From a virus (taxonomy: Duplodnaviria > Heunggongvirae > Uroviricota > Caudoviricetes), in the IMG/VR virus record IMGVR_UViG_2531839668_000008: 12,818 bases of DNA; one strand, 5' to 3'. Made by a program: the position numbers. Positions 1 through 2,625 of the stretch are shown here, piece after piece (position 1 is the first letter of the stretch; every line of letters starts with the position of its first letter).

Positions 1-2625
1 GTGGCACTTGAAATTGGCGGGCATCCGTCGTTGTTGTTGCCAGATGTGGCGATTAGTCTTGACCGTACTGAAGGTGCCACGCTGGAGTTTTACGAAGCTG
101 AGGCGAAAAAGCAGGCGAAGCAGTTTTTCATGGATGTTGCTGCCGGGTTATGTGAAGGGGATGAACCGTCACCGGAAAAGCGCCCCGTAATTTTAGAGGC
201 GCAGGATGTGTTGATAACCTACAGAGGAAAACTACCGGGAATAATTACTGGTTCTCTGAAGACTCCACCGCTGGCCTGAAGACTTAACATATCCAGGGAT
301 TTGAAATCGATAAACCCTGATAAATATCCATGAACGCAAAAATCAGATACGGCCTGTCGGCTGCCGTTCTGGCGCTGATTGGTGCAGGGGCGTCTGCGCC
401 TGAAATCCTCGACCAGTTTCTGGATGAAAAGGAAGGTAACCACACCACAGCATACCGTGATGGTGCGGGGATCTGGACCATCTGCCGTGGTGCCATTCTG
501 GTGGATGGTAAGCCTGTCGTTCCGGGCATGAAGTTGTCGAAGGGAAAATGCGACCAGGTTAACGCCATTGAACGTGATAAGGCGCTGGCATGGGTGGAGA
601 AAAACATCAAAGTGCCATTGAGCGAACCCCAGAAAGCGGGGATCGCGTCATTCTGTCCGTACAACATTGGTCCCGGTAAGTGTTTCCCGTCGACGTTTTA
701 TAAACGAATTAATGCAGGTGATCGCAGGGGAGCGTGTGAGGCGATTCGCTGGTGGATTAAGGACGGTGGCAGAGACTGCCGTATTCGTTCAAACAACTGC
801 TACGGTCAGGTATCCCGTCGTGACCAGGAGAGCGCGCTGGCGTGCTGGGGTATCGACAGATAAGCAGAATATTTTGCTGAAAAATAAGGCATGGCCACGC
901 GGGCGGATAACATGAAATCCTGCGAACTGGCGAAACGTAAGTGAATAAAAGTAAAAACCCCGTTTGTTGGCACCAAGCGGGGTTTTGTGTTTCCTGACTC
1001 CGGAAAAGTCAAAGGAGAAAGTGTGTTTGATTTTAGCAAACTGATTCGGGAGATTCGAGTGATGGCTGAAAAATTATCCACCTGGAAGTTCATTCTTATC
1101 TGGCTGGTGTTTGTGATTATGGCCTCCGGTTATTTCATCGGTCAGATACGCTGGTGGTGAAATGAACCGCGTACTGTGCGTGGTCATCATTGCCCTGCTG
1201 GTGGCCTGTGGTGCGCTTAGTCTGGGGCTGAATCATTACCGTGATAACGCCATTACCTACAAAGCCCAGCGCGACAAAAATGTCAGAGAACTGAAGCTGG
1301 CGAACGCGGCAATTACTGACATGCAGATGCGTCAGCGTGATGTTGCTGCGCTCGATGCAAAATACACGAAGGAGTTAGCTGATGCGAAAGCTGAAAATGA
1401 TGCTCTGCGTGATGATGTTGCCGCTGGTCGTCGTCGGTTGCACATCAAAGCAGTCTGTCAGTCAGTGCGTGAAGCCACCACCGCCTCCGGCGTGGATAAT
1501 GCAGCCTCCCCCCGACTGGCAGACACCGCTGAACGGGATTATTTCATCCTCAGAGAACGGTTGATGACAATGCAGAAGCAGCTGGAAGGGGCGCAGGAAT
1601 ATATCCGCACTCAGTGCACTAAGCTGGCTTTTTATTATCCGGAGGATATATGAAGAAATTACTGGTAACCGTAAAGCCTTTTCAGGGAACAATTCTGTTC
1701 CGTATTTTGCAGCGTGGTCGTGTTCTTGTTGAAGGTTCGTTCAGTGGTAAATGTACGCAATTACACTCCCGGACCTTTCAGGTGAATGCCACGAATGAAG
1801 AGCTAACCGTTGAGTGTACGATGAATGCCGCTAAATGCCGCATGGTATCCGCTGCATTACAGCCAGTGTGTTGAGCGACCTTATTATCCATGCGCGGTAT
1901 TGTCGCCGTATTCCCGCATTAACAGAGACCGCAGCCCGACCGGGAGACTCCTCTTCGCGAGTGTGCGGGGATAATCAAAAACGATACACACCGGGGTTTA
2001 CCGCGTTAACGGAGCGCGGCGTTGCCCCTCATAGTCGCCTGTCCGGTGCGATGGTGGAAGAAGCCGGACGATGTGTTACCTCGCAAGCCCTGTTATGTGT
2101 CTGATTTGTGATTTTAGTCGGATAATTGTCGTTGCCATCAAGCAGAGGATTGATGACCGACAGGGTGGCATTGTTAGAATAAGACTTATTCTTATCTGTG
2201 CCGGGAATGAAAATGAAAAGAAATCTTCCGTTAATTATTTTGTTGTCTTCTCTGGTTATGGGCTGTACGCAACATAAAACAGATATGCCCCGACAATTGG
2301 TGAAGGCATTACCACAATATCCGGCCTATGCAGCGGCAAATTATATAAAGGGACGGGTTGATGTGAAGTTTGATATTGGTGCTGATGGTACTGTCACCCG
2401 AATTGAGTTTATCCGTTCAGAGCCGCACCATCTGTTTGATGAGCAGGTTGTAAAGGCGATGGCAAAATGGCGATTTGAGAAGGACAGGCCGCGTAAAGGC
2501 GTGAAGAAAACGTTTATCTTTAGTCCTTCTGCACCCTGATTATTTCATCAGAAATTAATTATCACTCTGTTGTTATTCTGTACATCCCGGCTGGGTAAGT
2601 CTTGTTCCGCCGGGTATGAAGATGA

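Follow-up and report, generated by a model that had tools for sequence, protein, structure and literature searches.

The window analysed here, a 12,818-nt stretch of tailed-phage DNA (IMG/VR virus record IMGVR_UViG_2531839668_000008), carries at 2213..2539 (+) a coding sequence for a 108-residue lipoprotein with a TonB C-terminal (TonB-C) domain (WP_000828070.1, a RefSeq call named 'TonB family protein'). It is through TonB-dependent transporters that iron, vitamin B12, many phages, colicins, microcins and siderophore–antibiotic conjugates gain entry. Our preferred reading, which we hold tentatively, is that the phage protein acts as a lipid-tethered, uncoupled TonB C-terminal domain (CTD) that competes for TonB boxes, or with lower probability for TonB itself, and damps TonB-dependent traffic. 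The gene, its domain and its status as a moron (an accessory prophage gene) are already present in databases and in the table of one paper; only a function would be new. Database names are limited to 'TonB family protein', 'TonB C-terminal domain protein', 'TonB fragment' and 'partial tonB'. A literature search found no study of the gene's function, only these names and a list of prophage morons of LF82, an adherent-invasive strain of Escherichia coli (AIEC), on which the orthologue LF82_160 appears. PADLOC matched the gene to no defence-system model.

Two clades of the gene, about 71% identical at the protein level, were distinguished. Clade A contains the window gene, phage JLK-2012 and Shiga toxin 1a (Stx1a) phages, while clade B contains phage 21, the Perceval prophage of LF82 (LF82_160) and ev017.

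A TonB C-terminal domain on a predicted outer-membrane lipoprotein

Residues 26–104 (2288..2524, +) correspond to residues 153–231 of E. coli TonB in a gap-free phmmer alignment, with 31 of the 79 aligned positions identical (39%). Pfam PF03544 (TonB_C) matched with an E-value of 5.2e-15 and 56.1 bits against a gathering cut-off of 24.6, and TIGR01352 with 56.5 bits against a cut-off of 27.1. Among PDB sequences, phmmer found the E. coli and Salmonella TonB CTD chains at E ~1e-16, including those crystallised on BtuB and FhuA. The TonB equivalog models, in contrast, gave 50–73 bits against cut-offs of 265–448, which places the lipoprotein far below TonB proper.

An AlphaFold2 (AF2) model has a predicted local distance difference test score (pLDDT) above 95 across residues 30–105. 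Its best Foldseek matches were 1u07, 2gsk_B (TonB with BtuB) and 2grx_C (TonB with FhuA), at E 3e-8, template-modelling (TM) scores of 0.88–0.94 and root-mean-square deviations (rmsd) of 1.0–1.4 Å; for the two receptor-bound chains the rmsd was 1.0–1.2 Å and the TM score 0.92–0.94. TolA domain III appeared among the Foldseek matches only at E >0.1. A first-pass annotation of the window, made from the sequence alone, had described a lipoprotein with a TonB C-terminal-type domain, and this description is borne out by Pfam, TIGRFAM, phmmer, the lipobox and AF2/Foldseek; set against the CTDs of both TonB and TolA, the fold proved to be TonB-C, of the alpha/beta type with a three-stranded sheet, and much closer to TonB. 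A Pfam scan at E up to 0.1 returned TonB_C and TonB_2 as the sole matches and gave no relatedness to the phage lipoproteins Cor or Llp; the Foldseek fold matches were likewise TonB and TolA alone, with nothing resembling Cor or Llp. The BFVD viral structure library held no structural relative at E up to 0.001.

At the N-terminus, residues 1–17 read as a signal peptide preceding a putatively lipidated Cys18 (together 2213..2266, +; Cys codon 2264–2266) with Thr at position +2. This segment, MKRNLPLIILLSSLVMG followed by C18-T19, has a basic n-region, a hydrophobic core and the lipobox L-V-M-G-C18. A lipobox was defined as [LVI][ASTVIM][GAS]C with a residue other than Asp at +2, and the motif is present in the phage protein. 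The lipobox Cys is invariant in the 10 family members compared, and the +2 residue is T, S or A in all 10 or more relatives. According to the +2 rule of Lol sorting, a non-Asp residue at +2 directs a lipoprotein to the outer membrane; by this rule the phage protein is predicted to be sorted there. The tether between the lipid anchor and the TonB-C domain is just seven residues long, and both the N-terminal transmembrane anchor and the proline-rich spacer of TonB are absent.

Cysteine scanning of TonB residues 150–239 has identified seven functionally important residues (Y163, F180, G186, F202, W213, Y215 and F230). For several of the seven, conservation is seen mainly in TonBs of enteric bacteria, and a role in transporter and colicin recognition has been proposed for them. 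The equivalent residues of the phage protein are Y36, F53, G59, F75, W86, F88 and F103; six are identical and Y215 is replaced by Phe. The YP motif of TonB is also kept. From these conserved residues and the fold, the phage protein would be expected to bind the TonB boxes of transporters.

At codon 33 (2309–2311) the window protein has Leu at the position equivalent to TonB Q160, where clade B has Tyr. A Q160L substitution in tonB is the classical change that suppresses mutations in the TonB boxes of FhuA and colicin M. Because of the Tyr in clade B, we give the Leu no weight in the reading we prefer.

Selection, distribution and expression in lysogens

The TonB-C gene is under strong purifying selection: between clades A and B the synonymous divergence (dS) is 1.1–1.5 and the ratio of nonsynonymous to synonymous divergence (dN/dS) is 0.10–0.19. 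It is intact in a prophage that has lost most of its other genes. Among 5426 complete E. coli genomes, 417 carry the clade A gene and 1225 the clade B gene, about 30% together. Carriers include Nissle 1917 and IHE3034, and enterohaemorrhagic (EHEC), extraintestinal pathogenic (ExPEC) and AIEC (LF82) strains are among them.

In RNA-seq data from lysogens grown in lysogeny broth (LB), LF82_160 mRNA was 8-fold over the prophage background while the flanking lysis and terminase genes were silent, and its level was similar to that of host tonB. Over Dulbecco's modified Eagle medium (DMEM), LB and macrophage samples, LF82_160 stayed within 5.0–6.6 log2 fpkm (fragments per kilobase per million); host tonB ranged from 4.2 to 7.2 and was not followed. 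Transcription in lysogens was thus seen for the clade B gene LF82_160, and the clade A allele of the window has a promoter-like site.

Frameshifted C-termini occur in the clade B variants P0012, P0013, P0015, P0018, P0019 and P0021, at short A-runs near codons 90–97. These frameshifts remove the strand that would pair with the TonB box. P0012 represents 130 sequences, whereas assembly errors may account for the other variants.

A probable origin in a family of chromosomal lipoproteins with Fur boxes

A HMMER scan revealed many small relatives (105–135 residues) with lipoboxes. We scanned loci from Raoultella, Klebsiella, Serratia, Pantoea and Erwinia, using one genome per species, and eight chromosomal loci encode proteins 35–51% identical to the window protein; small TonB_C lipoproteins are also found in Salmonella, Gibbsiella and Rahnella. 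Members from Klebsiella, Raoultella, Serratia, Erwinia, Pantoea, Salmonella and Gibbsiella have the same architecture of lipobox plus TonB-C domain in 108–133 residues and are named only 'TonB family protein'. Those of the eight loci have in common with the window gene a signature K99, the residues SEP at 69–71 and the promoter string ATTG..AGAAT. They differ from it in having strong Fur boxes and, in the two loci whose genomic context was scanned, in lying outside any prophage: in Raoultella (L008) the neighbours are lacZ, lacI, a glycine-zipper lipoprotein gene and DUF1440, and in Serratia (L015) they are genes for an SLT_2 transglycosylase, an FAA hydrolase, YkgJ and NhaB.

The window domain shares 41 of 79 residues (52%) with the Raoultella lipoprotein and 31 of 79 with TonB. 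Because the domain is closer to the lipoproteins than to TonB, the phage gene most likely came from the chromosomal lipoprotein family and not from a truncated tonB. The same comparison makes a recent capture from E. coli tonB unlikely.

A DUF1440 gene adjoins the lipoprotein gene in Raoultella L008 (6738–7301) and is also present in the homologue-carrying Klebsiella phage ST13-OXA48phi12.4 (L004, 232–858). This co-occurrence hints at a capture of neighbouring chromosomal DNA.

When each 12-kb chromosomal locus was compared with the Fur consensus GATAATGATAATCATTATC, the best match sat directly upstream of the lipoprotein gene. The boxes agree with the consensus at 17 of 19 positions in Serratia (GATAATGATTTTCATTACC), at 16 of 19 in both Erwinia typographi and Klebsiella sp. 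R390, at 15 of 19 in Raoultella, at 14 of 19 in Pantoea and at 13 of 19 in Erwinia sp. P6884. Over the eight chromosomal loci scanned the range was 13–17 of 19, with the boxes lying about 20–110 nt upstream of the gene (loci L008–L018). The probability of such a placement is about 0.02 per locus, and it was seen in at least five independent Enterobacterales lineages. Because strong Fur boxes lie upstream, the chromosomal TonB_C lipoproteins, an uncharacterised family, are predicted to be induced in iron starvation.

A candidate promoter and its palindrome

Upstream of the phage gene, a candidate promoter at 2153..2180 (+) consists of ATGACC (2153–2158), a 16-nt spacer and the -10 hexamer TAGAAT (2175–2180) preceded by an extended -10 TG (2172–2173); it scored 9/12 in a consensus scan, in addition to the TG. 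The element TGtTAGAAT (2172–2180) is the best promoter-like site of the coding strand, and the string ATTGTyAGAATAAGAC is kept between clades A and B despite a coding dS above 1.

As the first-pass annotation had noted, a perfect palindrome lies over the -10 region: an 8-1-8 palindrome, AGAATAAG-a-CTTATTCT (that is, AGAATAAGaCTTATTCT), is exact at 2176..2192 and overlaps the extended -10 element; it would also cover the transcription start, expected near 2186–2189. Perfect palindromes with 8-bp arms and spacers of 0–3 nt number 3 in the window, with 0.97 expected. On its own the palindrome is at chance level; what counts is solely where it lies and in which register. Of 68 clade A viral contigs, 63 have it in perfect form; extra conservation within clade A was not distinguishable, with 1 of 17 palindrome sites variable compared with about 9 of 53 flanking sites. 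Phage 21 retains the left arm (ATTGTCAGAATAAGAC) and has lost the right one to a 14-bp deletion. The dyad of a third lineage (locus L006) is degenerate and shows a single symmetric double change.

Comparison with the chromosomal relatives suggests what this element derives from. Their Fur boxes start with a -10-like hexamer GAnAAT after ATT(G), and the sequence found equally far from the start codon is cATTGtTAGAAT in clade A and tATTGtCAGAAT in phage 21. In the Fur-box register, the window element TAGAATAAGACTTATTCTT matches the consensus only weakly, at 11 of 19 positions, and the Erwinia sp. P6884 box at 13 of 19. Its agreements with the consensus fall at dyad pairs 2, 4, 5, 6 and 8 and at the centre, and pairs 3, 7 and 9 carry symmetric substitutions. 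With the frame shifted by 3, the match to the consensus is 13 of 19, a score reached at only four window positions. The clade A palindrome therefore looks like a diverged Fur-type operator, marking the Fur-operator position of an ancestral iron-regulated promoter, which may or may not still bind a repressor. In clade B the operator appears broken and the promoter roughly constitutive, which fits the flat expression in LF82.

The palindrome had been taken to imply repressor control. As far as the phage's own repressor is concerned this did not stand: the first 30 kb of JLK-2012, including cI–cro, hold no second copy of the palindrome within three mismatches. An operator for the phage's own cI/Cro repressor was rejected, there being no relatives of the palindrome in the immunity region of this carrier phage, and the cassette occurring in phages of differing immunity and in a prophage without cI. 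For clade A, control by a repressor is still a fair hypothesis on positional evidence, with host Fur as the candidate. We also considered an RNA hairpin or terminator at the palindrome and rejected it, since its folding energy of -4.1 kcal/mol (z 0.72) is no better than that of shuffled sequences.

A Shine–Dalgarno-like GGGA at 2203..2206 (+) lies 6 nt 5' of the ATG at 2213, and in phage 21 a ribosome-binding site is annotated at the equivalent position. The ATG at 2213 is the conserved start; we take it as the start because an upstream ATG at 2207 reads ATA in some haplotypes.

A possible mechanism and its alternatives

When the TonB CTD binds the TonB box, the two form an inter-protein beta-sheet, and contacts between TonB and FecA in vivo do not require energised TonB. 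In the mechanism we prefer, the phage TonB-C domain would pair by beta-strand addition with the exposed TonB-box strands of TonB-dependent transporters, and possibly with those of incoming TonB-dependent colicins. Because the protein is uncoupled from ExbB–ExbD, such binding would be unproductive and would compete with the real TonB. A lysogen would then be less sensitive to TonB-dependent phages of the T1 and phi80 type, to group B colicins and to microcins, at some cost in siderophore and vitamin B12 uptake. The promoter would derive from the Fur-controlled promoter of the chromosomal lipoprotein family, half of the operator having been lost in clade B. Two precedents are consistent with this scheme: iron import that depends on TonB is inhibited when a periplasmic domain of TonB is overexpressed (Howard 2001, as cited in PMC9841981), and the phage T5 protein Llp, a lipoprotein of the inner leaflet of the outer membrane, acts on FhuA from the periplasm and excludes phage.

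Phage 21 (record 21967–24502, L105) and the LF82 prophage Perceval carry, beside the clade B gene, a second expressed moron, the sitABCD operon for an iron/manganese ABC transporter. This importer uses no TonB-dependent outer-membrane receptor. It could offset an uptake cost or mark an iron-fitness module; the association is circumstantial and compatible with both.

Several observations weigh against competition for TonB boxes. The most serious is that the Fur-boxed relatives imply induction in iron starvation, when blocking TonB-dependent uptake hurts, which argues that the native role is not plain inhibition. An inhibitor induced by iron starvation is paradoxical unless it protects abundant transporters from colicins and phages, or rations TonB. 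Stoichiometry is a second difficulty. TonB is the limiting component and transporters outnumber it; since they do, and the moron mRNA is only at about the level of tonB, stoichiometric blocking of all transporters is doubtful. The 7-residue tether may also restrict reach. Finally, conservation does not extend to the residues beside the TonB box (R158K, Q160L and R166Y in the window protein, with clade B different again), and TonB V226 is replaced throughout the family by an invariant Lys (V226K), in strand beta3, the strand that pairs with the TonB box. Because the residues adjacent to the TonB box are changed and the family has its own invariant Lys, the partner could differ from canonical TonB boxes.

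The first of these objections leads to a rival account that we consider possible, with a lower probability than the competition we prefer: the protein would be an accessory factor of the iron-starvation response, and on the phage an iron-fitness gene. It might organise the TonB boxes of idle transporters so that scarce TonB is focused on loaded ones, or shield the induced transporters from colicins and phages. The position of the top Fur match of each 12-kb chromosomal locus upstream of the gene, at 13–17 of 19 and in at least five lineages, speaks for such a role, as does the pairing with sitABCD in phage 21 and Perceval. Engineered periplasmic TonB domains, in contrast, inhibit transport, and the LF82 orthologue does not track host tonB over media and macrophage conditions. 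We know of no mechanism by which an uncoupled TonB-C domain would aid transport. The stoichiometric difficulty would be eased if the lipoprotein occupied TonB itself, since TonB is limiting and the phenotype would resemble that of TonB-box competition with far better stoichiometry. The retained G186, F202, W213, Y215 (here Phe) and F230 are positions whose Cys substitutions give TonB–TonB disulfide dimers in vivo, yet the dimeric crystal forms of the TonB CTD have been reported as non-existent in vivo, and the in vivo dimers needed the TonB transmembrane domain and ExbB/D, which the lipoprotein is without. We regard this variant as improbable.

We give a similarly small chance to the protein having no TonB-related activity, as a hitch-hiking remnant or a generic envelope or peptidoglycan-associated lipoprotein with a chance palindrome beside it. 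Annotations that say 'fragment', the chance-level palindrome missing from clade B and the frameshifted C-terminal variants in assemblies (for example P0012, with 130 members) fit this account. It sits poorly with a dN/dS of 0.1–0.2 over saturated dS, with the conserved TonB recognition residues and with an intact gene in a gutted prophage; the protein also has a signal peptide and lipobox that TonB does not have, and it is nearer to the chromosomal lipoproteins (41/79) than to TonB (31/79). A mere 'TonB fragment' or pseudogene is rejected by the dN/dS and the added lipoprotein signal. The label 'Rz-like spanin' of PHROG 1267 would make the protein a lysis accessory factor. Its full-length match to phrog_1267 (E 2.6e-42) and its nature as an outer-membrane-type lipoprotein adjoining the lysis cassette are what this label has in its favour. 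A complete Rz (1162–1653) with an embedded Rz1 (1382–1564) nevertheless lies upstream, and the domain is globular, unlike the proline-rich outer-membrane spanins; the gene is, moreover, expressed in lysogens, and its chromosomal relatives have no lysis context. The separate intact Rz/Rz1 pair and the globular TonB-C fold effectively refute a spanin identity, and we assign a lysis role almost no probability.

Competition for TonB boxes, our preferred reading, can be extended into a broader proposal that we think unlikely as a whole. The gene would encode a natural dominant-negative TonB mimic, carried by lambdoid prophages in about one third of E. coli strains, which by occupying TonB boxes or TonB protects the cell broadly, whatever the receptor, from all phages, colicins and microcins that depend on TonB. 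It would have been drawn from a previously unrecognised, Fur-regulated lipoprotein family that tunes the coupling of TonB to its transporters in Enterobacterales.

Comparison with known systems

The nearest well-studied counterpart is the CTD of E. coli TonB itself (residues ~150–239; 1u07, 2gsk, 2grx), with which the phage protein shares its fold, 39% identity and the functional residues. It differs in being lipid-anchored to the opposite (outer) membrane, in the changes Q160L, R166Y and V226K, and in reaching 73 bits against equivalog cut-offs of 265–448. The periplasmic TonB fragments of Howard et al. 2001 (as cited in PMC9841981) were likewise uncoupled, but they were laboratory-made, soluble and overexpressed, whereas the phage protein is natural, lipid-anchored and modestly expressed.

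Llp of T5 and Cor of phi80, N15 and T1 are also small phage-encoded lipoproteins, located in the inner leaflet of the outer membrane; they exclude phages and have as their target a TonB-dependent transporter, approached from the periplasmic side. Their fold is unrelated to that of the TonB-C protein. Llp is specific for FhuA and jams its plug without touching the TonB box, whereas the phage protein studied here would act generically through TonB boxes. Lambda bor and lom share the neighbourhood and the logic of envelope proteins expressed from a prophage, but the proteins are unrelated and bor is not an alternative to the TonB-C gene. In Myxococcus, GltG and GltJ (AgmX-type) re-use TonB_C domains outside nutrient transport to dock TonB-box-like partners, and weak NCBIfam matches connect them to the phage protein; they are distant relatives, being large multidomain inner-membrane proteins of a motility machine.

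If the preferred mechanism holds, phage and bacteriocin susceptibility, iron economy and possibly the uptake of cefiderocol-type drugs would be affected in carriers, which include EHEC, ExPEC, AIEC LF82 and the probiotic Nissle. An exclusion mechanism independent of the receptor, acting through mimicry of a host domain, would then stand beside the receptor-specific ones of Cor and Llp. The Fur-boxed chromosomal relatives offer a testable handle on the whole uncharacterised lipoprotein family. Should the gene have no effect, it would be one more annotated moron.

Prophage context and neighbouring features

Over 5.4 kb, the window has a 99.9% match to E. coli O157:H16 strain 98-3133. The surrounding prophage is lambdoid and heavily deleted. 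In the strain 98-3133 record the remnants of N and Q are fused, and cI, cro, O and P are all absent from the interval between the two; the immunity region is wholly lost, no replication genes lie between the two remnants, and the region from terminase to J is missing. In the window, genes for a lysozyme (330–863), Rz, Rz1 and a 74-residue open reading frame (ORF; 1650–1874) precede the TonB-C gene. It is followed by a 3' remnant of the tail-tip gene J (2746..3003, +; Pfam Ig_GpJ_C, E 6.5e-23; a RefSeq pseudogene with its N-terminus missing), lom (3070–3669) and a side tail fibre gene (3729–5045), 3' of which lie insertion sequence (IS) elements and genes for type III effectors, among them nleA.

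The TonB-C gene belongs to an accessory (moron) cassette of about 600 bp in the lambdoid backbone, with an approximate extent of 2070..2664 (+) set by homology breaks against phages without the gene. In those phages, homology to the window runs up to about 2069 and resumes from about 2665 to 2752, whereas phages with the gene match without a break across 1889–2752. The deletion junction lies at about 2746–2752, and similarity to intact phages stops at 2752. The cassette adjoins the J remnant and lom here because the deletion took out the terminase genes through J. In intact relatives (JLK-2012, an E. coli contig and a Klebsiella phage) the gene lies between the lysis cassette and cos or the gene for the small terminase subunit; the order in JLK-2012 is Rz, KilA-N, the TonB-C lipoprotein gene, ynfO, HNH and terS. 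Phage 21 carries bor and the TonB-C lipoprotein gene side by side, and the latter is therefore an extra moron and not a substitute for bor. The initial placement of the gene between Rz and lom, where lambda has bor, holds for the window in that the cassette does adjoin lom, but only by way of the deletion; it does not describe the native slot. At about 2671–2752 (-) a ynfO-like gene is cut off by the prophage deletion.

Directly 5' of the cassette, at 1893–2069 (+), lies a conserved non-coding block of about 180 nt. About 400 records of lambdoid phages contain it (lambda-like, Stx1 and Stx2 phages, phage 21 and Salmonella S107), and in all of them it sits between the lysis genes and cos; its reading frame is not conserved. 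RNAalifold predicted a long hairpin with compensatory changes from CG to AU or UA and a U-G pair that never varies, an indication of the late-transcript strand. Rfam gave no match for the block, and it may represent a structured RNA of the lambdoid late operon that has yet to be described. In some phage records (PV189407.1 and NC_049923.1), ORFs over this block also carry the label 'Rz-like spanin', probably a propagated mis-annotation.

Further downstream, a direct repeat of about 570 bp (94–99% identical; 8190–8754 and 11995–12560) brackets the segment containing nleA, and a 106-bp piece lies in inverted orientation at 5385–5490. An IS3-family element carries an ALIL frameshift pseudoknot at 7215–7331.

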